Positions 11,986 through 30,924 are shown, numbered from the stretch's first letter. The stretch: 64,000 nucleotides of DNA from an uncultured delta proteobacterium (GCA_963743305.1 CAVUPH010000014.1:32001-96000); one strand, 5' to 3'. Numbers and translations are program-made. Notes: generated from the letters alone by a model not told the origin.

Positions 11986-13746
11986 ATGGTTCTCGATAAA
12001 TACGCGCAACTTAAAAATGAACTCGTAACCTGCATCAACTCCCTGGTGACCATCGAAAGTGACACCAGTGGCCTCTATGAAGAACTCAGAGAAAAAATCC
12101 AAAATAATGTCTTTAACCTCGTTGTTCTCGGACAGTTCAAAAGGGGGAAGACCAGCCTGATCAATGCCCTCCTGGGGGCAGAAATATTACCCACCGCGAT
12201 TGTCCCTCTCACCTCTATTGCCACGATTCTCAAATACGGCGAAACCGTAAATATCAATGTGTATTTCAATGACGGCCGGGTGATGGACATTGAACCGGCA
12301 ACCCTCCCCCAATATGTAACGGAAAAAGGAAATCCCAGAAATGAGAAAGAGGTGCAGGAAGTCATCATCGCTTATCCTTCGACCTATCTAAAAGACGGGG
12401 TCCGGTTAATCGACACCCCCGGCGTCGGATCGGTCTATGAACATAATACCGATGTGGCTTATCATTATTTACCCAAGTCGGATGCCGCCCTGTTTCTCCT
12501 CTCGGTAGATCAGCCGGTGAGCAAGGCCGAGCTTGAATTTTTGAAAGATGTCCAGGAATTCTCAAACAGGATATTCTTTCTCCAGAACAAGGCCGATTAT
12601 GTGGGCGCCGAAGACCTGGCCGAATCCATTTCCTTCTCGAAGAAAATTATTGAGGAGTGCCTGGGCAACGAAGTAAAGATATTCCCTCTTTCCGCCAAAT
12701 GGGCACTCGAAGGCAAATTGTCCGGAACAAAGGAATTTCTGGAGAAAAGTTTTCTTCCCGAATTTGAACGAGTCCTGAATACCTTTCTGATGCAGGAAAA
12801 GGGCCGGGTCCTGCTCCTTTCCGTGACGAATAATCTTCTGCGGCTGCTCGCTCAGGCCCGGTTCAAGCTTGATCTGGAGATGAAATCGTTCTCGACGCCT
12901 TTGGAGGAATTGAAGGAAAAGATAAAGATCTTCGAGAATAAAAAGAAAGAGATCCTGGTCGAAAAAGACGACTTCTACCTCCTGCTGGATGGCGCCACGA
13001 AAAATATTATCAAGAACGTCCTGGATGAAGACACGAAGGCCTTCAGGCAGGAGTTGCTTCTTAAGGTGTCGGAAAACATTGAAACCCGCTACCCGGAGTA
13101 TTCGGGCCTGTCCCTGAAGGAGATTCAGCGGCGTCTTGAAGAACAGATTGTCGCCGAAGTCAAACAGGCCTTTATGGCCTGGCGCGGCCTGGAGGATGAG
13201 AAACTGTCAAAAACCTTTGAGACGTCCTGCCAGAGGTTTATTACCAAGATCGACGAGACCGTGGATTCCCTCCTCAATTTCTCAGCCGACCTCTTCGCCG
13301 TTCCCTTCGATATCGTCCAGGCCGAGGCCATTTGGTCATCGAAGTCGAGGTTTTACTATAAATTCAAGGAGCAGCCGGGGGGGATTGAGATCGTGGCCTC
13401 ATCGCTGACCTTGTTGCTGCCGAAATTCATCGGCGAAAAGATCTTGCTGAAAAAGATGAAGGAATACCTCGAGGGAGTAATAGACAGGCAGTCCGCCAGG
13501 ATTGGTTCTGACTTTGAAGAAAGACTGGATAAGAGTAAGCTGGCTTTCAGGTGGGAGATGCTACAGAGGATTGAGGCCACCATGGAAGGGATATCCCAGG
13601 CTATCGAAACGGGGATGAGCCGGAAATTGCAGGGCGAAAAGGCCGTGGAGGAACAAAAGGCTTTCCTCCTGAAAAAGGAAAAGAGAATGGGTGAAATCAA
13701 GGAAAAATTGATGTGGATACGGGAAAATTTATCCAGTAAAATTTGA
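11986..13746 (+). CDS. Bacterial dynamin-like GTPase (DLP-A)
   Basis: G1 GQFKRGKT, G2 PLTS, G3 DTPG and G4 NKAD motifs, followed by a long helical/coiled-coil C-terminus. Confidence 0.9.
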   Translation: MVLDKYAQLKNELVTCINSLVTIESDTSGLYEELREKIQNNVFNLVVLGQFKRGKTSLINALLGAEILPTAIVPLTSIATILKYGETVNINVYFNDGRVMDIEPATLPQYVTEKGNPRNEKEVQEVIIAYPSTYLKDGVRLIDTPGVGSVYEHNTDVAYHYLPKSDAALFLLSVDQPVSKAELEFLKDVQEFSNRIFFLQNKADYVGAEDLAESISFSKKIIEECLGNEVKIFPLSAKWALEGKLSGTKEFLEKSFLPEFERVLNTFLMQEKGRVLLLSVTNNLLRLLAQARFKLDLEMKSFSTPLEELKEKIKIFENKKKEILVEKDDFYLLLDGATKNIIKNVLDEDTKAFRQELLLKVSENIETRYPEYSGLSLKEIQRRLEEQIVAEVKQAFMAWRGLEDEKLSKTFETSCQRFITKIDETVDSLLNFSADLFAVPFDIVQAEAIWSSKSRFYYKFKEQPGGIEIVASSLTLLLPKFIGEKILLKKMKEYLEGVIDRQSARIGSDFEERLDKSKLAFRWEMLQRIEATMEGISQAIETGMSRKLQGEKAVEEQKAFLLKKEKRMGEIKEKLMWIRENLSSKI

Positions 13747-20278: not shown

Positions 20279-20920
20279 ATGAAATGGCTTTTTTTTTCCT
20301 ATAGTCTCCCGACGGAACCGTCCAAGGCCAGAGTGTATACCTGGAGGCAGTTAAAAAAACTGGGAGCCGTAAATTACCAATCGGTCTGGGTCCTGCCGTA
20401 TTCCAAGGAATGGCTCGAAGACCTCACGAAGCTTATGGAGTCCATTGGAAGCCGCCGAGGGGAAAGCCTGCTGATTGAGGGAAAAAGCTTGACCAAGGAG
20501 CAAGAGGATCGAATCAATAAGGCCTTTATCGATTCACGAAATGAGGAATACGGGGAATTGATCGAAAAGTGTGAAGATTATTTCAAGGAGATCGATTTTG
20601 AAATCGAGAGGCAAAATTTCATCTTTGCCGAGGTGGAGGAAAATGAGGAGGAACTTGAAAAACTTAAACTGTGGTTTAAAAAGGTGGCCAAGCGGGATGT
20701 CCTGGATGTGCCGCTACGCAAGGTAGCAGTTGAGAAATTAATAGACTGCGAAAAGCGTTTTGAGGAATTTTCCCAAAAGGTTTTCGAACATGTTCAATTG
20801 AAAAATACGGAGAAAAAGGGGCCCACCCCAAAGAAGGCCTTGAGGAAAAAGAAAGATTCAGGAACGCTATTTTCCTGCGGGCTGAAAGGGAAGCCGAGGG
20901 AGGACGAACTTTTAAAATAA
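20279..20920 (+). CDS. ChrB N-terminal-domain protein (putative transcriptional regulator)
   Basis: WLFFSYSLPTEPSKARVYTWRQLKKLGAV, FIDSRNEEYGE and ENEEELEKLKLW...RD resemble ChrB-family short proteins. Confidence 0.75.
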   Translation: MKWLFFSYSLPTEPSKARVYTWRQLKKLGAVNYQSVWVLPYSKEWLEDLTKLMESIGSRRGESLLIEGKSLTKEQEDRINKAFIDSRNEEYGELIEKCEDYFKEIDFEIERQNFIFAEVEENEEELEKLKLWFKKVAKRDVLDVPLRKVAVEKLIDCEKRFEEFSQKVFEHVQLKNTEKKGPTPKKALRKKKDSGTLFSCGLKGKPREDELLK

Positions 20921-21042: not shown

Positions 21043-22243
21043 ATGGCAGATTTTAATTTGATCCGTGAATTAACCGTAACCGCCGATACCAAGATCGTGC
21101 TTCTTGTCATGGACGGTCTTGGCGGGGTGCCGAATGCGCCGGGCGGACCCACCGAACTGGAGTCCGCCCGCACACCGAACCTTGACCGTCTGGCGGTCAA
21201 AAGCATGCTGGGCTCTCAATCCCCATCGGGCACGGTATCACCCCAGGCTCCGGACCGGGGCACCTGGCCCTGTTCGGCTACGACCCGCTCAAGTTTCTCA
21301 TCGGCCGGGGTGCTGGAGGCGCTCGGCATCGGTTTTGAGCTGACGCCGGACGACGTGGCCGCGCGGGGCAATTTCTGCACGGTGGATGACAAGCTGCTCA
21401 TCACCGACCGCCGCGCCGGACGCATTCCGACGAAAAAATGCGCCGAGCTGGTGGTTAAGCTGCGGGCGATCCGGCTGCCGCAGGTGGAGATCTTCGTCGA
21501 GCCGGTTCAGGACTACCGGTTTGCGCTGATCTTCCGTGGCAAGAGCCGTCCGCCGCCCTGACCGACACCGATCCGCAAAAGACCGGGCTTCCGCCGCTTC
21601 AGGTCAGGCCCGGGCCGAGGAGGCGCGCAAGACGGCCGAGATGGTCAATTGCTGGGTTGCGGCCGCCCGCGAGCTGCTTAAAGACGAGCAGCCGGCCAAC
21701 ATGGTGACGCTGCGGGGCTGGGCCAAGGAACCCGGTCTTCCCAAGTTCGACGACATCTACCGTCTCAAGGCCGAGCCATCGCCGTGTACCCGATGTACAA
21801 GGGCCTGGCCAGCTGGTCGGCATGGACGTGGTACCGGACTGCACAGTCTGGAGGAGCAGATCGAGGCGCTGAAGGCGAACTGGGAGGATTACGACTTCTT
21901 CTTCGTCCACTATCAAGTACACCGACAGCCGGGGCGAAGACGGCGACTTCGCGGCCAAGGCCGCCGAAATCGAGAAGGTGGACGCCGCGATCCCGCGTTT
22001 CCTGGATCTCAAGCCGGACGTGTTCATCGTGACCGGCGACCACAGCACGCCGGCCGTTTGGAAGGCGCATTCCTGGCACCCCGTGCCGACCCTGCTCTAC
22101 GCTCCGCATCTGGCCGGCCGCAACGACGTGAAGGGATTCGGGGAGACCGAATGCCTGCGGGGGCGCTCGGCCAGTTCCAGGCCATGGACCTGATGCCGCT
22201 GGCGTTAGCCTATGCCGGGCGCATGGCCAAGTTCGGCGCTTAG
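21043..22243 (+). CDS. apgM: Cofactor-independent phosphoglycerate mutase, ApgM type (several frameshifts)
   Basis: [39 protein letters not shown] and TGDHSTP...HSWHPVP motifs. Confidence 0.85.
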
Positions 22244-22249
22244 CCCTGC

Positions 22250-24128
22250 AGCGCCTTTCAGGCCGTCCTCCACTTGAATCCCTTCTCGTCAGCGCCTTGG
22301 GCCGCCGGCCAATCCTCCAACCTCAGCCATCTCAGGCATAATGTCGGCCAGGTCACGGCGGATCGCCTCGGCAGTCCTCCGGGCTCGCTTCCGCTGACCC
22401 GAGAAGCCGGTCCAACTGCGCCCGATACGCATGGGCGTACGAATCGAACCCCGTTTGAATCTCGCCGGTGACCCTCCGTACCCAGGCCTCGAGGAGCCGG
22501 CGATACGTTCGAAAGGCTTCCGAAACCGCCGGGCCGAACCGGTGCCGGAGTCGGCGTTCCACCCGCGCCCTTACCAGCGACGCAGCGATTGACACGAATG
22601 GTGAGCGCTTGTAGGACGGTATCTGCCCGGCGAAATCAAGTTGCGGCATTTCTCGGAGGCCCGAGACAAGCTCTTCCTCCTGAGGCATCTCAGTCATATT
22701 CAGTTCCCGGGCGGCCCGCTGAAGGGCAACGGTCAGCTCCTTGGCGAGGCCATTAAGCCTCACGAACAACTCCGTGGCGGCGCCGGCGGCAGTTTCCGCT
22801 ACGGAGGCGGTCAACAGGTCCGACTCCACTTTTTGCCCCTGGCGCCAGCGCGCAACTATTCGGGACGCGGCTTCCCGCAGTGCGGTCGATGCCAGGTTCT
22901 CCACTTCTTCGGCTGCCCGAAGACAGGCCGAAATTTCTTCAGGTATCCGGCCGGCCGACCGCCTCAACTCCTTTTCCACCTGTTTTAATTTTTCGGCATC
23001 CGTCGGACGGATTCCCTCCACACGATCCAGCCTGGACCGCAGCGCCGCCTCAACCGATTCCCGCAGGGCCGCAATTTTCCGCCGCACCGACTCACCCGCA
23101 AGCTGTTGGTGCCGTTGACAAAGCGGCTCGATCTGTTCTTTGAACCAGGCCTCCAATAAGGCCGCGGAATCTCCGACGATGCTGACCGGCTGGACATTCA
23201 GGGTCAGGCCCAACCGCCCCTGGATCTGCTCGGAAATATAAGTCCGTGCCGACTCACGGTCCTCCCGTGTCAGGAGGTCTGCCTTGCTGAGCAAGACCGA
23301 AGCCGGCACTCCCGCCTCCACCAGGGCCTGAATGGTCGCCAGGTCCTCTTCATCGAGCGTCGAGCCGGCGTCGACCAACACCATGCCGAGATCGCACTGC
23401 GGGAGGTAGGCCCGGGTCTCGTCGGCCCCGGAAGTCGCCAAAGAACCGAGACCCGGAGTGTCCACGAACACCATCCCATCACTGAGTCTGGCGCTAGGCA
23501 GCTCTGCTATAATCTTGGTGACGCCCTTGGAGTTACCCGGATTGCGTTGCTCGGTAACGAAATCCGGCAAGGCGGCGACTTCGAAGCGCTCAACTCGGCG
23601 GTCTGTGAAAGTGACCGTCAACCTCGGTTCCGGTCCGAAAACCAGCCGGGTCGGCACCGCCGTGATCGGATTCACGCCGACCGGAAGCACGGCCACGTGC
23701 AGCATCTGATTCAACAACGACGATTTTCCCGAACTCACCCGGCCGAAGACGGCTATTTCGAAGCGCTGGGTCTCCAGGCGATCCAGAATCATCGTAAGCT
23801 TGGGGCGAAACTCGACCAAACCCTGCGCGGAAATGATTCTCTCGATCTTATGAAGCAGATCCGCATCGTCCCCGTCCCATTGGAGTCTCTCGCTGCGGGT
23901 GCCGAGGTCCTGCCCGAGGCCTTGCACCAGATAGGCGTCGAGTGTGTCGACCAGCGCCTGGAGTTCGTTGACCAGGCCGTTGAGGTCGGCGATCGCGGAT
24001 TCCGGAACTTCTCCGTAGCCCCTCATGTATTTAGGGCCTATCTCGGTCAGGGCGATTCCGACAAATGATAGGTTATCCACATACTCGACACTGCTGATAA
24101 GACGACGTTGCTGGGATTCATTCAACAT
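22250..24128 (-). CDS. Bacterial dynamin-like GTPase (DLP-B); exact 3' end uncertain
   Basis: G1 GRVSSGKS, PITAVPT, DTPG and SKAD motifs with a helical C-terminus. The ORF track ends at 22353, probably at a frameshift. Confidence 0.85.
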
Positions 24129-24405
24129 TTTTCAATTCCATATTAAAAAATGGGTAGCCATTCTTGTTGCCGGCAATATGATTCAAAGCCCGAAGGTAAG
24201 CATCTTTTTCATCCTTATTAATCAGGTCCCTTCGTAAGGCATTACGTTTTATGGCGTAGTTTTCCAGATCCTCCATTGCATATTCTTCTTGGACCTCTGG
24301 GTCCTGGGAAAACGTATTCATCCAATGCGCATAATAATCAAGCGCTCGTTGGATAAGATGGGTGCACACCGGACACCCGCGGCTTTGCAGATCTTGAACG
24401 ATCTC
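24118..24405 (-). pseudogene. Fragment of a CPVC-containing Cys-rich domain
   Basis: Reading upstream in frame gives QDLQSRGCPVCTHLIQRALDYYAHW with no clear start codon. It abuts the truncated MFS. Confidence 0.45.
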
Positions 24406-24406
24406 A

Positions 24407-24949
24407 CTAAACCCTAGCCGGGTGGCCGGCTATCCAACTCAGCAAACCAAACGCGGTTAAAGGCCCCAGGATGGCACCGAGCGTATCGCTGGCCCGGTGA
24501 AATCCAAAGGCCTTCCCCAGGTCTTTGGGAGCAACCGATTCGGCCAGCAAGGCATCGCGGAGAGGACTGCGTATGCCCCGGCCGAACCAGCCCACTACCC
24601 GTCCCAGGAGGATTAGGGGCCAGGCCAAGGCGAAGGCAAAAACGGCCTTGGCGATGGCGGTAAGGGTATAGCCGATAACGGTCCACGTCTTGCGATGTCC
24701 AATTTTGTCACTGTGATAACCGGCCCCAATTTTGACAAAGCTGGAGAGGGCATCGGCTACCCCTTCGATAAAGCCCAAGGCGGCCGCCGAAGCCCCTATG
24801 GCCCGCATGAATTGAGGCAAAACAGCAGTGGCCATTTCATGACAAAAATCACTCAGGAGGCTGGTCAGACCAATGGCCAGGACATTACGATTGAACCATC
24901 GGTTGAGAGTTGTAGACTCCTTTTCCGGGCTTTGGGTTTTTTCATTCAT
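24407..24949 (-). pseudogene. MFS transporter, N-terminal half only
   Basis: SLLSDFCHEM, GRGIRSPLRDALLAE and AFGFHRASDTLGA motifs; the ORF stops after about 6 TM segments. Confidence 0.75.
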
Positions 24950-24971
24950 TTTAAGGTCACCAGTCTCCGAT

Positions 24972-25570
24972 TCAGCCCTGCCTCAGGAGGGCAAGTAAAA
25001 TTTTACCTTTTCCTATTATCCATATCCTAATTTTAAACCAACTCACTATTATGACCAGGGCACAAATCCCGCCCAAGAAAATGCCGCCCAGGACATCCAG
25101 AGGATAATGTTCCCCCACGTAAACCCTGGAATATCCTACGACTAAGGCCATCAATAGGAAAAGAGGGGTACCACAGTCGATAAGAAAAAGAAAGGAAAAT
25201 TGCGGCGGCAAAACAATTGGCCACATGATTGGAAGGGAAGGACAGAGAGCGTGGACAGGGCCAAAAAGTATGGATGCCGGACAAAACATGACAAGGACGG
25301 ATGCGGCCGAAGAGGGGCTTGATAAAAAAACTGTTTGAGTAATCAGTCGTCCCCACTAACAGGGCCAGCAAGACGGCTGTTATCTTTCCTTTCGGACCTC
25401 CTAAAAAAAACAACAGTAACCAAAGGACCAGCAAAGGAATCCGCCAGTAATTAAATTCAGTAATGATGGGCATGACCCAGTCAAAGAATGGATTGCGGCT
25501 GGCCTTGGTTGATCCAGTAAAATATCCAGATATCCCGAGCTAAAAGGCTATTGAAGAGATGTTCCATCAT
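24972..25570 (-). CDS. PAP2-family membrane phosphatase (frameshifted)
   Basis: KPLFGRIRP, SFPSNH and SRVYVGEHYPLDV motifs. Confidence 0.85.
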
Positions 25571-25631
25571 TTAAGATAACCCCTTAAGAAATAAAGGTTG
25601 CTAAAAAAATCGAGGATTTTGCTCAAAGGTT

Positions 25632-26382
25632 TTATTTATTGTTCCGATCAGATATAAAGGGATAAAATCGCGATTCCTCCTGATTAACCGAATCAGAAGG
25701 AGAAACCCGCGAAAAAAATAGCTTCCACCCGCTGCACCAGCCTACGGCGCTGATCAAGGCCGCTTTATCCTCTTCGGTTTCCGTCCCCTGGAATTCCATG
25801 CGGAAAGAGTGGGCAGTCAGACAATATGATGAAGAATTTCCTTTACAAAAGCCTGATGGCGGGGAAAATCATTTACGATCCCTGAGCGTATATCCTCCAT
25901 AAGATGGGGCCGGCATCTTTGAGCCGATTCATTTCCCAAACACCGCCCGCAAACGGCCTTCTGCCAGTATTTCTTGGTGTCCAGGGCAATTTTTGAAGCT
26001 CCGAGAGGTCCCGGCCTCTTCTGATGACATCCGCTTGGGCCTTCCCTATCGAGTTAGGTCCAAAACCTTCCTCACACATCAAACAGGGGCCCTGGTTCCG
26101 AAGGCGTCTAATCGTCCGGAGACGGGGCAGGGACCCCTGGAAATTAAGGGCCGACCACGCCTGCTCCATGAGATCCAGATAAAGGATGGCCGGTCCATGC
26201 ATCCATCCTCGGCGAAAAGAGGCATCCATGGAGATAAAGCCCCAGGCGTGGCGTCCACAGAAGCCCCAGGCCTTTTTAAGCCGCTCCCGTGTACGGGAGG
26301 ACATGATACTCCCCTGGATAAACCACCAGAGGAAGTGGATTTCACCTTCCGATAATTGAAAATCCTTTCTTTCAATGAGCAC
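25632..26382 (-). CDS. Conserved-looking hypothetical Cys/His-rich protein (frameshifted)
   Basis: HFLWWFIQGSIM, AWGFCGRHAW and CLMCE; coding continues in other frames to about DKAALISAVGWCSGW. Confidence 0.6.
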
Positions 26383-26876
26383 GGATATTTTCTTACTCTG
26401 TGTCGTTCACCTTCATCGTGTTTAAAATCTCTCGGGCGGCCTCTCGAACCGATTCGACCGGATCCGTAGCAGGCGGCGGATACGGATTCCAGGGCCGGTG
26501 CCCCCCCCAATTTGCCCAGGGCCTGAACGGCTTCTTTACGGACCAGGAACGAGGGGTGCCGCACGAAATCCTGGAGTTGTGGAAGGGAAGCCGGATCTTG
26601 GATTTCTCCTAAGGCCCAAACAATGTCCGGAAGCAAATAAATGTCCCGGGTCTCCTGCGCCGCCTGCATTAAAGCCGGAAGGGCTTGCTTGGCCTTTAAC
26701 AAACCCAGTATGCGGGCCGCCCGATGGCGGGTCTCCGGCTCCGGGTGCTTCAAGGAAAGGGCCAGGCGCTCCGCATAGCCCATCGCTTTCCATCGGCTAA
26801 GATCCTCCCGGCAACGGGGACAGGTTTCAAAGGAATCAGAGGATTCGAACCAGCAGAACGGGCAATAATAAGTCAT
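26375..26876 (-). CDS. Zn-ribbon plus HEAT-repeat protein (3' end uncertain)
   Basis: CPFC...CPRC followed by HEAT-like repeats (RHRAARILG, VWALGEI, RKEAVQALG). Confidence 0.75.
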
Positions 26877-26888
26877 GAAAGCCGCATC

Positions 26889-27770
26889 CTAACTTTTTTG
26901 AAAATCTTCGAGAACCTTCAAGGTGTTGATGGCCATGCAGGTATATTCCAGAGTTGCAATCCCCAACAAATGAGACCTTCTGAACCCAAATCCTTTGGTT
27001 TGACAATCAAGGACAAATTTCAAGATGGCCTCCTGGTACTTTGGTCGATAACCTGCCAGTTCAGAGCCTAATAAACCAAAATAAATATCCTCTAAAAAGG
27101 CCAATGTAGACATAGGGACATTGGTAAAACCGAATTCTTCTTGTTCACACAGAAAAATAAATTCAAAAAAGCCTGATGGGTCTGTGAGATAGCCCAGATC
27201 CTTTAGTATCCTTAAAGCCCAATAGGTCTCCCGCAAGTTGGAGATTTCTATACTAAAGCCAAAATCTTTTCGTTGGAACCTAAGGACATAATCCCGCCCT
27301 CTTTTCTTTAACGATTCCTCCATGGGGCACCCGATTAGTTCGATCAGTTCTGTCAGATAGCTCAAAGATTCAAGGCCTGATTCTTGGCCGGAAAGGGTTT
27401 TTTCAAAATTCCCTAATAGGGATCGAAACAGCTCCGGAGTGTTGATTTCTGTTTTGAAGAGTTTAAGGACTCGCAAGCCATAATAAGTCCCCCAGAGGCC
27501 GGGCAGGCCATCAGCATGGTCAAAGAATCGTTGAACGAAGGCAACGGTTTTGAAGGGATTAGGAGGTAAAGCGGATAATAATGATAGCGTCCGGGTGGCA
27601 AAAAAGGTATCGGCCAGATTGGGCTCTTCCAGCCCATAGAAACAGTATCCTCCTTCCCGGCATTCCAGGGAATGGATATATTCGATCACTTTCAAGGGCG
27701 TCACCCGGTCCATAAGCCCTCCATGGAGCCGGGGATCATTCTTTGTCGAAGGTAAGCCAGGGGAGGGCAT
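26889..27770 (-). CDS. Prenyltransferase/squalene-cyclase-repeat (alpha/alpha barrel) protein; start may be 27713
   Basis: Repeated motifs EGGYC..PNLADTFFA, FQRKDFGF..ETYWAL and CQTKGFGF..EYTCMA. Confidence 0.65.
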   Translation of the reverse strand: MPSPGLPSTKNDPRLHGGLMDRVTPLKVIEYIHSLECREGGYCFYGLEEPNLADTFFATRTLSLLSALPPNPFKTVAFVQRFFDHADGLPGLWGTYYGLRVLKLFKTEINTPELFRSLLGNFEKTLSGQESGLESLSYLTELIELIGCPMEESLKKRGRDYVLRFQRKDFGFSIEISNLRETYWALRILKDLGYLTDPSGFFEFIFLCEQEEFGFTNVPMSTLAFLEDIYFGLLGSELAGYRPKYQEAILKFVLDCQTKGFGFRRSHLLGIATLEYTCMAINTLKVLEDFQKS

Positions 27771-27959
27771 TCCATCCTCACAGATTATTTCCCCGACCTT
27801 TCCCGGGTTGCCCCCCTGATTTGAAGAAGCCCCGAATCACCCGAAAAGGGCATTCCTTCGGTTCGAATTCACTGTTGGCCCTTTACTCCCCATAGGAATT
27901 CCCGTTTCCAAAATTATATGCAGGCCATCCTTCTTTATCGAAGTTTCTACCAGTCCCAA

Positions 27960-27999
27960 AAATAAAAAACTTCTACCCCAATTATTTTGGAGTAGAAGT
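27960..27999 (-). terminator. Terminator of the riboswitch 2 expression platform
   Basis: On the minus strand ACTTCTAC pairs with GTAGAAGT, followed by TTTTTATT. Confidence 0.8.
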
Positions 28000-28061
28000 C
28001 ATGAGCTTCCTTTAAACCTACCGGTAATTAAAAGAAAGCGGTTCCGGTGAACTTCATCACC
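27992..28061 (-). ncRNA. Fluoride (crcB) riboswitch 2
   Basis: Minus strand reads GGUGAUGAAGUUCACC-GGAACCGC...GCUCAUGACUUCUAC; the GAAGU/ACUUC pseudoknot is complementary. Confidence 0.9.
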
Positions 28062-28122
28062 TTTTTATAATCTAAAAACCATCGTCGTCCGATATCATCG
28101 TTCAAAAAAATTTTCCCCGCTG

Positions 28123-28564
28123 TTAGTCCTTTTTCTTTTCAGACTGGGCCAGGATGACGGTACAAGGGGCATGGGTGGTGATCTGCACGGCCGTGCTGCC
28201 GCTTTGGGTATGCAGAATGGCAGATCGGCCTTTTTTACCCAAGAGCAGAGCATCAAACATGCCCTTTTGGGCATAGGCGATCACGGCCTCCACTTCATGC
28301 CCCGGAAGAATTCGGCATTTGATTTCCACCCCGTGTTCCCGGCGCATCTTCACAGACCAGGGTTTGCTCCTTTTCGATTTCCTTGGTGATCTCGGCCAGG
28401 GCCTCTTTGACCTCCCCGATCGTGGCCGCATAATGGGGGAGCTGTTCGATGATGGTCAGCAAATGGACTTCCGAATCAAACTTTCTGGACAGTTCCAGGG
28501 CGATCTCCAGGGCCTTCTTGGAATCGTCGGACCCGTCATAGGCCACCAATAATTTTTTAAACAT
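28123..28564 (-). CDS. Universal stress protein (frameshifted)
   Basis: KKLLVAYDGSDDSKKAL and GSTAVQITTHAPCTVIL motifs. Confidence 0.85.
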
Positions 28565-28582
28565 AGAACACCTCCTATTCTT

Positions 28583-29725
28583 CTAAATGCTCCGAAGTAG
28601 AGTAGAACCATTAAGATCGGGTAATTCATATTTGGGATTAAACCATTTCTGGGCGATAAAGGTGGGGATGATGGCGCTCAAGACCACAACGGCCACCAGC
28701 ACAGAAAACTGGGTTCGATTGATGATACCGGCCGTCAATCCAAAAACCGATGAAATGGCTCCCACATGGTCAGACCCGTGCTCATCAACAGGGTCGTGTA
28801 CATGGCATTTTCAGGAAGATATTTTTTAGCAGGGGATAAGACCCCCACTATTTTGGTGACTTGTTTGACCAAAAGCATCTGCACCAGCAAGCCTAAACTC
28901 AATAAAAGCAATTTCAAAGAGATATTCATCCCGCCGTTGATAAAGAAGAATGGGGTAATAATGGCAAAGGCCACTACCCGAAGTCGGTGCTGTAATTTAC
29001 GGTTTTCCATAAAAATTTTGGACATGGCCAGACCCAGGACAAAGGCCGGCAGGATGGCATGGCTGGCCCCGACTTTGGCGAAAAACATAAAAACAACCAG
29101 GATGAGAAAAAGAAAATTGATCTCGGCTCAATCACCCGGTCACCGTAGCGCTTGCAGATCCAGGGATAGATCCTGGGGATAATCAGAATCGAGCAGGGCG
29201 GAAACCCCCAGAAAGAGCAGGGTGAACCACGTTGAGCTCGAGAAACAGCAGAGTAAGGGCCAGGGTTGTTCCCAAATCAGTAAAAAAAGTGGCGGCCATA
29301 AGGATCTTGCCCAGTTCGGTATTGGTTAAACCGGTTTCGACCAAGACGGCATAGACGACGGCCAGGGAGGTGGTGGAAAGGGCTATTCCGGCGATCTCAG
29401 CGGCCGGCCAGGTCCAGTCCAACAGGTAATGGGTATAAAATAAGGCACCCAGAAAAGGAGCTAAAAAAGAAACGATGGTCCGACAAGAACTTCCTTAAAT
29501 TTGGCTTTCATGACCTGGGTGTCCACCTCGGCCCCGGCCAGGAAGGTCAAGAGGATACCGCCAAAGCCGGCCAGATAGGTACTCCAGGGAGTGGGATGGA
29601 GTTCCAAAAAGTTTCCTCCGATGACACCGAGGGACATTTCAATGATGCCACTGAGAGGCCCAGCTCAACCCGAAGAAGATTGGCGAGGATGGTGCGGAGA
29701 GGATAAATACGAAGATGGCGTCCAT
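28583..29725 (-). CDS. Cation:proton antiporter, CPA2-like (many frameshifts)
   Basis: ALSTTSLAVVYAVL, AATFFTDLG, ILPAFVLG, PFFFINGG and TTLLMSTGLT fragments occur in order. Confidence 0.8.
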
Positions 29726-29775
29726 TCAAAACCTCCATTACAAGGAAGCATCCTCACAATGAGCCTTCTTCGGCA

Positions 29776-29800
29776 TAAAAAAAACCGCCGGGTGGCGGGT
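29776..29800 (-). terminator. Terminator downstream of riboswitch 3
   Basis: Minus strand CCGCC...GGCGG hairpin followed by a long T run. Confidence 0.65.
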
Positions 29801-29845
29801 TCATCCGTACTCCCTAATGCCCCCCACCGCGGCAGTGACCTGCGC

Positions 29846-29896
29846 AGTAGGAGTCATTAGCTCGAATTCGGCGTTTATCGGGGGGACTCCATCCCC
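29846..29896 (-). ncRNA. Fluoride (crcB) riboswitch 3
   Basis: Minus strand reads GGGGAUGGAGUCCCCC-CGAUAAACGCC...GCUAAUGACUCCUAC. A TTGACA -35 box lies at 29926-29931. Confidence 0.92.
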
Positions 29897-29946
29897 ATCT
29901 AATAAATTAAAGGAATTTTAATAATTGTCAATTAGTTTTTGCCACT

Positions 29947-30924
29947 CTAATCAATAAAATATTGAGAAATATAACGCAAAGCCAGGAAGGTGATGATGAG
30001 GCCCAGCATGAGCTTTATGAATTTTTGGGGGACAAATTTCTGGGCCCGGGCGCCAAAGTACATACCTCCAAAGCCACCGACGCCGAAGAGGAAGCCTAAG
30101 AACCAATCCGGGGCGGTAGCCAGGCCGGGCTGGGCCGGGATGACGCTGTAAAAAAAGACTCCGGCAATGGAGGTGATGAAGGTCCCCAACAGGGCCGCGC
30201 CTGCTACAGTATAAACGGGCAGGCGGAAGACGGCCACGCAAAAAGGGGCAATGATCGCCCCCCCGCCTATGCCATAAGTGCCGCCGATAATGCCGACCAC
30301 GAAGGCTAATAGAAACATGGCTACGGTGCTATAGGAAAACCGTTCTCCCCAAAATTCGTATTCCACTCGGGTCAAGGAAAAATGAATGGTCTTGACCACG
30401 GCCTCGGCCGGCAAACCGGAAGCCAGCCGAGCCATCCGTCCTTCTTTGAGTTGCCTGGCTTGTTGATTGAATTTTTCTTCCAGGGCCTTCATCTCCTTCT
30501 TACCCTTTTGCGAACGCCCCGACATTTCGTAAAGAAGGCGTATCCCAATATAGAGTAAGACGCAGCCGACAAATAATTTAAAGGCCTTAGGATCGGGCAG
30601 GTAGAGGACCCGCAGATAGTAACCGATAAACACCCCCGGCAAGGTCCCGACAATGACCACCCAGGTCAGCGGCCAGGCCATCCGCCCTTCTTTCAGGTAA
30701 CGGTAGACGCCACTGGGGATCGCGACGATATTATAAACAAAATTCGTAGCACTGACTGAAGGACTGGTGAAGTTCAAAAAACTTACCTGAAAGGGAAGGA
30801 GCAGAAAAGCCCCGGAAACACCGCCCATCGAGGTAAAAAAAGATACGATAAAAGCCACCACGGGAGGGATAAAAAAATAGGTCTTTACCCCCGAAACCGG
30901 GAAAAGCCAATACCAGCTTTCCAT
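29947..30924 (-). CDS. TauE/SafE sulfite-exporter-family protein
   Basis: SMGGVSGAFLLLP and GGTYGIGGGAIIAP repeats. Confidence 0.85.
   Translation of the reverse strand: MESWYWLFPVSGVKTYFFIPPVVAFIVSFFTSMGGVSGAFLLLPFQVSFLNFTSPSVSATNFVYNIVAIPSGVYRYLKEGRMAWPLTWVVIVGTLPGVFIGYYLRVLYLPDPKAFKLFVGCVLLYIGIRLLYEMSGRSQKGKKEMKALEEKFNQQARQLKEGRMARLASGLPAEAVVKTIHFSLTRVEYEFWGERFSYSTVAMFLLAFVVGIIGGTYGIGGGAIIAPFCVAVFRLPVYTVAGAALLGTFITSIAGVFFYSVIPAQPGLATAPDWFLGFLFGVGGFGGMYFGARAQKFVPQKFIKLMLGLIITFLALRYISQYFID

Follow-up and report, generated by a model that had tools for sequence, protein, structure and literature searches.

In many bacteria three protein families without an assigned function are tied to fluoride riboswitches and to one another. 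They are represented together in a stretch of 64,000 nucleotides from the genome of an uncultured delta proteobacterium (GCA_963743305.1, CAVUPH010000014.1:32001-96000; the whole of this stretch is referred to below as the window). There, on the minus strand, a fluoride riboswitch (riboswitch 2) leads into a row of closely spaced genes that encode a protein with the alpha/alpha-toroid fold of protein prenyltransferase beta subunits (PT-like), a protein of HEAT repeats preceded by two CxxC pairs (ZnR-HEAT), a Cys/His-rich helical protein (CYS) and a PAP2-family phosphatase. When the synteny comparison suggested in an initial annotation of the window was carried out, the homologues of CYS, PT-like and ZnR-HEAT proved to be syntenic with each other, with genes for dynamin-like GTPases and with fluoride riboswitches. 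Our best explanation as a whole, to which we give a probability of about 0.6, is that these genes specify a fluoride-induced cytoplasmic complex that would work with a major facilitator superfamily (MFS) transporter and a dynamin-like GTPase at the membrane. The riboswitch linkage, the mutual linkage, the identities of the genes and the folds are established; the complex and its role at the membrane are what we infer from them.

The riboswitch at the head of the operon

Riboswitch 2 (27986–28070, minus strand) matches the full length of the Rfam model RF01734 (positions 1–64) with 45.9 bits and E 1.6e-9 (the cut-off being 34 bits). In the RF01734 alignment its P2 loop carries a 22-nucleotide (nt) insertion, and its pseudoknot strands read GAAGU/ACUUC instead of the consensus GGAGU/ACUCC, a two-sided change by which the pairing is kept. 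An intrinsic terminator, the putative expression platform, occupies 27958–28000 on the same strand and has a 14-pair stem followed by TTTTATTTTT. It competes with the aptamer: the hairpin, running from 28000 to 27958, overlaps the aptamer end at 27986, and ACUUCUAC is common to the 5' arm of the hairpin and the 3' pseudoknot strand of the aptamer. The terminator is present in the minimum-free-energy fold (z -4.63 for the 121-nt leader). As far as can be judged from these sequence features, riboswitch 2 is of the usual ON, transcription-terminating type, in which the fluoride-bound aptamer would hold its pseudoknot and so block the overlapping terminator, allowing RNA polymerase to continue. 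The initial annotation had recognized both the riboswitch and its terminator, and the Rfam match and the hairpin with its U-run bear this out; the span that it gave ends at 28061, nine nt short of the aptamer's limit at 28070.

A consensus scan of the minus strand from 27968 down to 24000 found no convincing terminator-like site, and this, together with the spacing of the genes, argues for co-transcription of the operon. One promoter-like site lies past the terminator, at 27941–27913 (seven such sites were found, against 5.5 expected by chance). The Rfam search found only three fluoride riboswitches in the 4.9-Mb genome, all of them within the window. Despite these three switches, a search aimed at CrcB only gave no match to PF02537 in this genome, which is 90% complete.

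Linkage of CYS genes to fluoride riboswitches and dynamin-like GTPases

A scan of one genome per species gave 79 loci with 85 copies of the CYS gene. Their carriers, as labelled, are Desulfomonilaceae, Syntrophales, Chloroflexota, Rokuibacteriota, NC10, Actinomycetota and many Paraburkholderia, and one locus is on a Cupriavidus plasmid. A covariance model of our own, built from 24 riboswitches of the window and the CYS loci, produced 163 riboswitch matches in 1.28 Mb, with at least one in 60 of the 79 loci; as a background, nine matches were found in about 73 Mb from 20 relatives of the window's genome. On the same strand as CYS and upstream of it, a riboswitch was present within 400 nt for 32 of the 85 copies and within 3 kb for 53. 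Members with a riboswitch within 400 nt occur in 8 of the 11 CYS clusters formed at 50% identity, and in 18 of 38 at 70%. The lowest-scoring group of matches was that of Paraburkholderia, for which an Rfam recheck of three loci gave 16 RF01734 matches, all at 46–56 bits; one of these riboswitches had been missed by our own model, so the counts given here are lower bounds.

Of the 85 CYS copies, 37 have a gene for a dynamin-like GTPase no more than 2.5 kb away, on the same strand in 30 instances (16 upstream, 14 downstream). The typical order in Desulfomonilaceae is riboswitch, dynamin-like, CYS, enolase, NhaP, MFS, and that in Paraburkholderia is riboswitch, CYS, dynamin-like. Other neighbours of CYS in these islands are pyrophosphatase, Hyc/Hyf-type subunits, universal stress protein, DUF190 and CLC proteins, HAD and histidine phosphatases, and MutS-like ATPases, in addition to enolase and NhaP.

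Three Paraburkholderia loci (L039, L043 and L053) are unusually rich in switches, with five or six Rfam-confirmed fluoride riboswitches per 20 kb, which control enolase pairs, pyrophosphatase, DUF190, Hyc-type genes, pairs of MutS-like genes, CYS and dynamin-like genes. L053 has two divergent CYS paralogues, each with a riboswitch of its own.

Linkage of PT-like genes

A word-indexed search returned six close relatives of the PT-like protein, and when metagenomes were scanned with the family alignment 80 loci (0.48 Mb) were obtained, eight of which have less than 150 nt of sequence upstream. Our covariance model gave 133 riboswitch matches here, with at least one in 64 of the 80 loci; a riboswitch was found within 300 nt upstream of the inferred PT-like start in 35 loci, and within 1.5 kb in 57. 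An Rfam recheck of 13 sampled loci gave 34 matches at or above the cut-off (36 by our own model). When 76 PT-like proteins from the metagenome loci, the genome loci and the window were clustered at 40% identity they fell into four clusters, one of them with 66 members, and riboswitch-linked members were present in all four (51 of 66; 2 of 5, one being that of the window; 4 of 4; and 1 of 1). In the clusters of four members and of one, a dynamin-like gene stands between the riboswitch and the PT-like gene.

Directly 3' of the PT-like gene (72 cases) we found ZnR-HEAT in 17, MFS in four, a dynamin-like gene in three, and nothing called in 40, many of which are contig ends; directly 5' there was a gene for a protein of 97 amino acids (aa) in 20, DUF6062 in 19 and CYS in three. 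The usual order is DUF6062, PT-like, ZnR-HEAT, MFS. A representative unit of the large clade runs from a riboswitch through DUF6062 (246 aa; 58.7 bits on PF19538), PT-like, ZnR-HEAT, MFS and a 145-aa protein to a second DUF6062, a small AAA/STAND-like ATPase and a histidine phosphatase. In other units of this clade a riboswitch precedes the gene for a 97-aa DUF2267-like protein or that for a 278-aa Cys-rich protein and, separately, one for a dynamin-like GTPase. The ZnR-HEAT gene can also stand first: in locus L009 a riboswitch is directly before it, and two MutS-like genes follow.

Several PT-like loci (L121, L129, L139 and others; e.g. L129:3743-5960) have three fluoride riboswitches in series, about 400–900 nt apart, each heading one small gene (for the 97-aa DUF2267-like protein, the 278-aa protein, whose PHF5-like match is weak, and DUF6062) ahead of the PT-like gene, an unusual chain of checkpoints in one gene row. 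Upstream and on the opposite strand, L094, L109, L111, L129 and others have genes for formate-tetrahydrofolate ligase, a RACo-type activator and a CbiA-like ATPase, which suggests that the carriers of the large clade use the Wood–Ljungdahl pathway.

The protein families

The CYS gene of the window (25632–26382, minus strand) encodes HFLWWFIQGSIM, WGFCGRHAW and CLMCE and matches no Pfam family. In a word-indexed search the family comprised 111 clusters of homologues of about 240 aa, and among 1.84 billion representatives a CYS profile reached 456 at E ≤ 0.001, 259 at ≤ 1e-10 and 99 at ≤ 1e-30. The invariant residues make up the motifs C-x2-H, CxxC, CxxC and C-R-x-H, which would imply that CYS holds two metal sites; an N-terminal GEIHFLWWFIQGS and a C-terminal GWCSGW are also conserved. 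The AlphaFold2 model of a protein 81% identical to the window's CYS (P0001) is all-helical (predicted local distance difference test, pLDDT, 92.3; predicted template modelling score, pTM, 0.90). A Foldseek search of the Protein Data Bank with this fold had a best E of 0.8 and nothing below, and a wide VIA-align search gave generic helical bundles with a best Z of 4.5.

It is with DUF6062 (PF19538) that CYS has its affinity. The Pfam model PF19538 detects none of 23 CYS members, even at E ≤ 1, and NCBIfam has no family for PT-like, P0001, a true DUF6062 protein or the 278-aa protein. An hhalign comparison of CYS with 13 DUF6062 proteins (the family representative scoring 58.7 bits on PF19538) gave a probability of 91.5% and E 8.5e-7 over 132 columns, with the shared motifs aligned. 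Among the ESM-Atlas clusters nearest to CYS, 16–27% of the members have PF19538, and a 524-aa protein of locus L035 matches both PF19538 (8e-12) and CYS (tblastn, 1e-5). The two families are alike in their length of about 240 aa and in the motif order G-x-C-x2-H-x-W, CxxC, C-x2-H, but CYS has GEIHFLWWFIQGS in place of the N-terminal CxxC of DUF6062, and an extra CGxC. By these alignments we take CYS to be a distant member of the DUF6062 superfamily.

The PT-like gene (26889–27770, minus strand) is an intact open reading frame (ORF) of 293 codons with a Pfam Prenyltrans match (7.5e-11); its start may be at about 27713, as is implied by a 100%-identical database entry of 274 aa (P0112). AlphaFold2 predicts an alpha/alpha toroid (pLDDT 90.6, pTM 0.89), for which the best Foldseek matches were the beta subunits of RabGGTase and GGTase-III (template modelling score 0.70–0.73, E 4e-6, about 15% identity); the sequence match to RabGGTase beta is weak (E 4e-4). 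Protein prenyltransferases are defined by a catalytic Asp/Cys/His zinc site. No histidine is invariant or nearly so among 52 aligned PT-like members, so this site cannot be conserved, and a low-confidence HMMER alignment to RabGGTase beta places N-L-R before the aligned YSWW stretch of the window's protein. We do not class PT-like as a prenyltransferase: it has the fold, without the conserved histidine for the zinc triad.

The ZnR-HEAT gene (26393–26876, minus strand) encodes about 160 aa if read across one frameshift, with matches to HEAT_2 (1e-24), HEAT_PBS (1.5e-12) and DZR (0.006). Its two CxxC pairs, CPFC and CPRC, are at the N-terminus, ahead of the HEAT repeats, and the same architecture is found in L014 and L009. 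We could see no signal peptide or membrane segment, by eye, in the PT-like, ZnR-HEAT or DUF6062-type sequences, and all three have more the look of binding or scaffolding proteins than of any known type of enzyme.

The PAP2 gene (24972–25570, minus strand) is present as two ORF pieces, 25033–25473 and 24972–25289, which cover positions 4–75 and 83–127 of the 130 in the Pfam profile and score 33.8 and 41.0 bits, both above the cut-off of 27.2. Their translations contain KPLFGRIRP, PSNH and SRVYVGEHYPLD, which we take to be the three signature motifs of PAP2. The best similarities in NCBIfam are to undecaprenyl-diphosphatases, and are weak (36.8 bits, against a cut-off of 250). PAP2 is also absent among the ORF representatives of the CYS and PT-like loci that were scanned with Pfam, and would on this distribution be an addition peculiar to the window's lineage.

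The state of the genes in the window

The ORF and Pfam scans agree with the initial annotation in finding a tightly spaced, co-directional row of PT-like, ZnR-HEAT, CYS and PAP2, but three of the four genes (all but PT-like) are frameshifted, which had been overlooked. The ZnR-HEAT ORF as assembled runs without interruption over 26079–26876. Its frame breaks at about 26467; an alternative frame from 26464 continues into a HEAT-like repeat with a stop at about 26393, and the product read across the break has about 160 aa, in a family whose members have 148–160. A run of eight G residues near 26505 was ruled out as the site of this frameshift, since a related contig and the alternative frame both place the break at about 26467. 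CYS is in three pieces in three frames, with breaks at about 25987 and 25822, which jointly cover profile positions 6–235 of 238. The PAP2 gene, which has no single uninterrupted reading frame in the window, has at least two frameshifts, one near 25497 and one somewhere in about 25150–25290. Beyond PAP2, an MFS gene (24407–24949, minus strand; MFS_1, 2.4e-17) consists of the N-terminal half only, aligning to residues 14–201 of homologues of 407–430 aa, at up to 62.7% identity.

Comparison was possible with partial contigs of relatives from two public DNA runs (shares 0.08 and 0.06). In contigs of a relative about 90% identical, four positions (25822, 25987, 26467 and 25497) each show a single-base difference from the window: there is one extra base at each of the two CYS breaks, one fewer at 26467 and, in two related contigs, one fewer at 25497. 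From these single-base differences the relative is in frame at all four sites. The first three breaks had been located from the reading frames beforehand, and 25497 was read as a break after the comparison. Cover by ORFs of at least 200 aa is 31% in the bin 24001–30000, against a median of 77%, which puts this bin in the lowest 2% of 790 six-kb bins; a generally indel-rich assembly was rejected as the cause of the breaks, long-ORF cover being normal across most of the genome.

This bears on an explanation to which we give even odds, namely that the unit of the window is a decaying remnant, in which the HEAT, CYS, PAP2 and MFS genes and the antiporter and stress genes upstream are pseudogenes, though the riboswitch may have stayed functional. 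At least five single-base frame breaks in 3.1 kb, the in-frame state of the relative at four of them, the poor long-ORF cover of this bin in a genome that is not otherwise ridden with indels, and an MFS gene that lacks its C-terminal half, which is beyond base-calling error, all speak for decay. On the other side, PT-like is intact, single-base indels are typical also of a locally under-polished long-read consensus, and a jump in composition at about 24.1–24.4 kb could be a mis-join. The window's copy may thus not be functional, but such decay is compatible with the conclusion about riboswitches at the level of the families.

The operon appears to be an accessory of the genome. CYS was found in none of 40 relatives, of which three share the genus of this genome, 17 its family and 20 its phylum, and PT-like in none of 15 of the same genus or family, with one weak match (E 7.5e-5) in another family. 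Probably the operon was acquired.

A proposed complex and its alternatives

The arrangement in the window is most simply described as the joining of two sets of genes, each of which has its own fluoride riboswitch in other bacteria. The first is PT-like, ZnR-HEAT and MFS, usually preceded by a DUF6062 protein; the second is CYS, a DUF6062-superfamily protein that elsewhere usually adjoins a dynamin-like GTPase. The row in the window would then be the first set, interrupted by PAP2 and by a gene of the DUF6062 type. We propose that three soluble proteins, PT-like, ZnR-HEAT and that of the DUF6062 type, associate in a complex. Because it lacks the catalytic zinc triad, the toroid would be a binding subunit, and the helical-repeat protein might stand in place of the alpha subunit of a prenyltransferase. 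At the cytoplasmic membrane this complex would act jointly with the MFS transporter and the dynamin-like GTPase, which share its regulation, and would form one branch of the cell's response to fluoride stress; PAP2 would add to it the dephosphorylation of an isoprenoid or lipid diphosphate.

The beta subunit of a prenyltransferase pairs with an alpha subunit of helical repeats. PT-like likewise has a helical-repeat neighbour (the HEAT gene is directly after it in 17 loci), and it might be supposed that the toroid and ZnR-HEAT are a bacterial, fluoride-induced counterpart of the alpha/beta heterodimer, handling an isoprenoid or lipid ligand or the DUF6062-type protein; we offer this as an analogy that is a good deal more likely to be wrong than right. 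The initial annotation had envisaged a novel fluoride-induced module for the modification of lipids or membranes. Its regulon-like element is upheld by synteny for CYS, PT-like and ZnR-HEAT, but the membership of PAP2 and the lipid role are not: PT-like is without a conserved zinc-site histidine, and the single gene of the row that clearly encodes a lipid enzyme, PAP2, was seen in the window only.

Several observations weigh against the complex that we favour, or limit what it can explain. About a third of the CYS copies (32 of 85) have no same-strand riboswitch within 3 kb upstream. One clade accounts for 66 of the 76 PT-like proteins, so that a riboswitch in 64 of 80 loci overstates the number of independent cases. 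The contigs closest to the window in arrangement (L084-L086, of the window's cluster, with CYS then PT-like) have no riboswitch in the 400–500 nt of upstream sequence available. The window's PAP2 pieces recur in none of the 79 CYS loci and none of the 80 PT-like loci (tblastn, E ≤ 1e-4). The dynamin-like gene of the window differs in G+C from the operon and may be a separate unit, and the window's own copy has at least five frameshifts and a truncated MFS gene. It is gene order by itself that suggests the complex, and genome context that suggests induction by fluoride. A complex prediction for the CYS protein of locus L055 and the adjacent dynamin-like GTPase, with the chains given as alignments, had a score of 0.00 and returned no verdict, which speaks neither for nor against their association.

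A different kind of explanation, which we think unlikely, is that the riboswitch compensates for inhibition by dosage, as is the accepted view for enolase and pyrophosphatase, raising the level of fluoride-sensitive phosphoryl-transfer enzymes (PAP2, the dynamin-like GTPase, MutS-like ATPases), with the non-enzymatic proteins as passengers. Riboswitches of the same islands do precede genes for enolase, pyrophosphatase, HAD and histidine phosphatases and MutS-like ATPases, and for enolase and phosphatases the logic of dosage is given in the part of a review that we could draw on (PMC11139923). It would leave unexplained why the tightest linkage to riboswitches includes three non-enzymatic families (the toroid, HEAT and DUF6062), and PAP2 is not conserved in the module.

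It is very unlikely that the module deals with the release of fluoride from fluorinated organic acids, or with their toxicity, instead of with mineral fluoride, as the initial annotation had allowed. Desulfomonilaceae, among which are many of the carriers of CYS, dehalogenate, and in one related locus, from a delta-proteobacterial metagenome-assembled genome, a 141-aa FlK protein (L006:12806-13231, plus strand; Pfam FlK, 1.1e-34) is encoded directly behind a riboswitch at 12554–12614, which hints that some related islands also deal with compounds of the fluoroacetate type. Yet this thioesterase was seen in one locus of 159, the one whose ORF was scanned; the window operon has no dehalogenase and no FlK gene, and nothing in the window points to organofluorines. 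The riboswitch, moreover, senses the fluoride ion.

Least credible is the idea that the first gene or genes alone are controlled by the riboswitch, the rest being unrelated neighbours or an anti-phage island of dynamin-, STAND- and MutS-like NTPases: the promoter-like site downstream of the terminator and weak PADLOC matches (of the dynamin-like proteins to LeoA/LeoBC, and of a neighbouring 221-aa ATPase to Avs/mad8) might favour it, but PADLOC gave no match for PT-like, CYS (P0001) or the true DUF6062 protein, and other genomes have each of the families immediately after a riboswitch of its own.

Neighbouring features of the window

Downstream of the MFS fragment is an ORF of 83 codons (24118–24369, minus strand) that overlaps by 11 bases the start of the gene for a dynamin-like GTPase (22353–24128, minus strand; Dynamin_N, 2e-23). 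With tblastn the small ORF has weak matches in three loci, L034 and L049 (E about 1e-5) and L087 (8e-9), and its product may be a small partner of the GTPase. The dynamin-like gene may be transcribed by read-through from the operon. Its G+C content is 0.63, against 0.48–0.50 in the operon just upstream and 0.53 downstream, and the junction in composition coincides with the MFS fragment at about 24400; it could reflect a mis-join, a rearrangement or a mosaic of acquired segments.

Directly upstream of riboswitch 2 and on the same strand is another unit (28123–29905), comprising riboswitch 1 (29841–29905; RF01734, 46.7 bits) and the genes for a Na+/H+ exchanger, spread over several frames, and for a universal stress protein, split in two, both recognized from tblastn pieces in differing frames. 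The genes of this unit run into riboswitch 2, so that the two switches are in series.

On the plus strand, 21043–22243 holds an ORF of 172 aa that is overlapped, in another frame, by one of 235 aa. The first begins, by eye, like a cofactor-independent phosphoglycerate mutase; probably this is another frameshifted gene of the island. Also on the plus strand, 20279–20920 encodes a protein with a ChrB_N domain (family 34) that recurs in these fluoride islands next to the MFS gene, in four loci including the window, L019 and L021 (Pfam 3.3e-39 for the L021 member).

Significance and comparison with known systems

Few riboswitches are as well understood as those for fluoride. The accepted fluoride regulon consists of exporters, functions of pH and ion homeostasis, and fluoride-sensitive enzymes. 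Three families without known function now stand among the genes that are tied most tightly to fluoride switches, in lineages of the Desulfobacterota type, in Paraburkholderia and in other bacteria, usually near dynamin-like GTPases and an MFS transporter. They provide a testable entry point to those effects of fluoride on the cell that go beyond enolase and pyrophosphatase, and they place DUF6062, and a class of bacterial dynamins, in a physiological setting for the first time. As culturable strains of Paraburkholderia carry the CYS/dynamin pair, genetic analysis is feasible.

The initial annotation had known of no link between these proteins and fluoride, and a literature search likewise turned up none for the toroid, HEAT, DUF6062 or dynamin-like families, with the limit that Baker et al. 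(2012) and its supplements, which may list some, were outside the search. DUF6062 was mentioned in none of the papers covered. A recent account of a divergent fluoride-riboswitch candidate concerns crcB leaders, and makes no mention of these genes in the part available (10.64898/2026.10.21.760802). Riboswitch control of fluoride-response genes is known; it is these cargo families that look undescribed in the fluoride response.

The cargo of classical crcB-motif riboswitches, according to the accessible part of PMC11139923, a fluoride-resistance review of 2024, comprises crcB/Fluc, eriC-F/CLC-F, Na+/H+ antiporters, enolase, pyrophosphatase and formate hydrogen lyase. The unit in the window is like these RF01734 operons in its aptamer family and terminator-type platform, and related islands hold classical cargo, but its own cargo (toroid, HEAT, DUF6062-type and PAP2) differs and goes unmentioned in that part of the review.

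Among the individual proteins, PT-like shares with the beta subunits of protein prenyltransferases (RabGGTase, GGTase-III and FTase) the toroid, with a root-mean-square deviation of 3.2–3.6 Å over about 300 columns, as well as hairpin repeats of the GGF type and the Pfam Prenyltrans match; it differs in its identity of only about 15%, in having no conserved zinc-site histidine, and in being bacterial and riboswitch-controlled, and no alpha subunit of the PFTA type was seen with it. The PAP2 protein resembles lipid phosphate phosphatases of the PgpB/YbjG/BcrC type in its Pfam match and motifs, but falls far below the NCBIfam cut-offs and is frameshifted, and in this family it is only here that we see a link to a fluoride riboswitch. 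The neighbouring GTPases, finally, are comparable with bacterial dynamin-like proteins such as LeoA/LeoBC, DynA and IniA/IniC in carrying Dynamin_N, and have a weak match to LeoA/LeoBC; control by fluoride riboswitches was described for such proteins in none of the papers searched, and here they are likely partners that stand outside the set of four genes.

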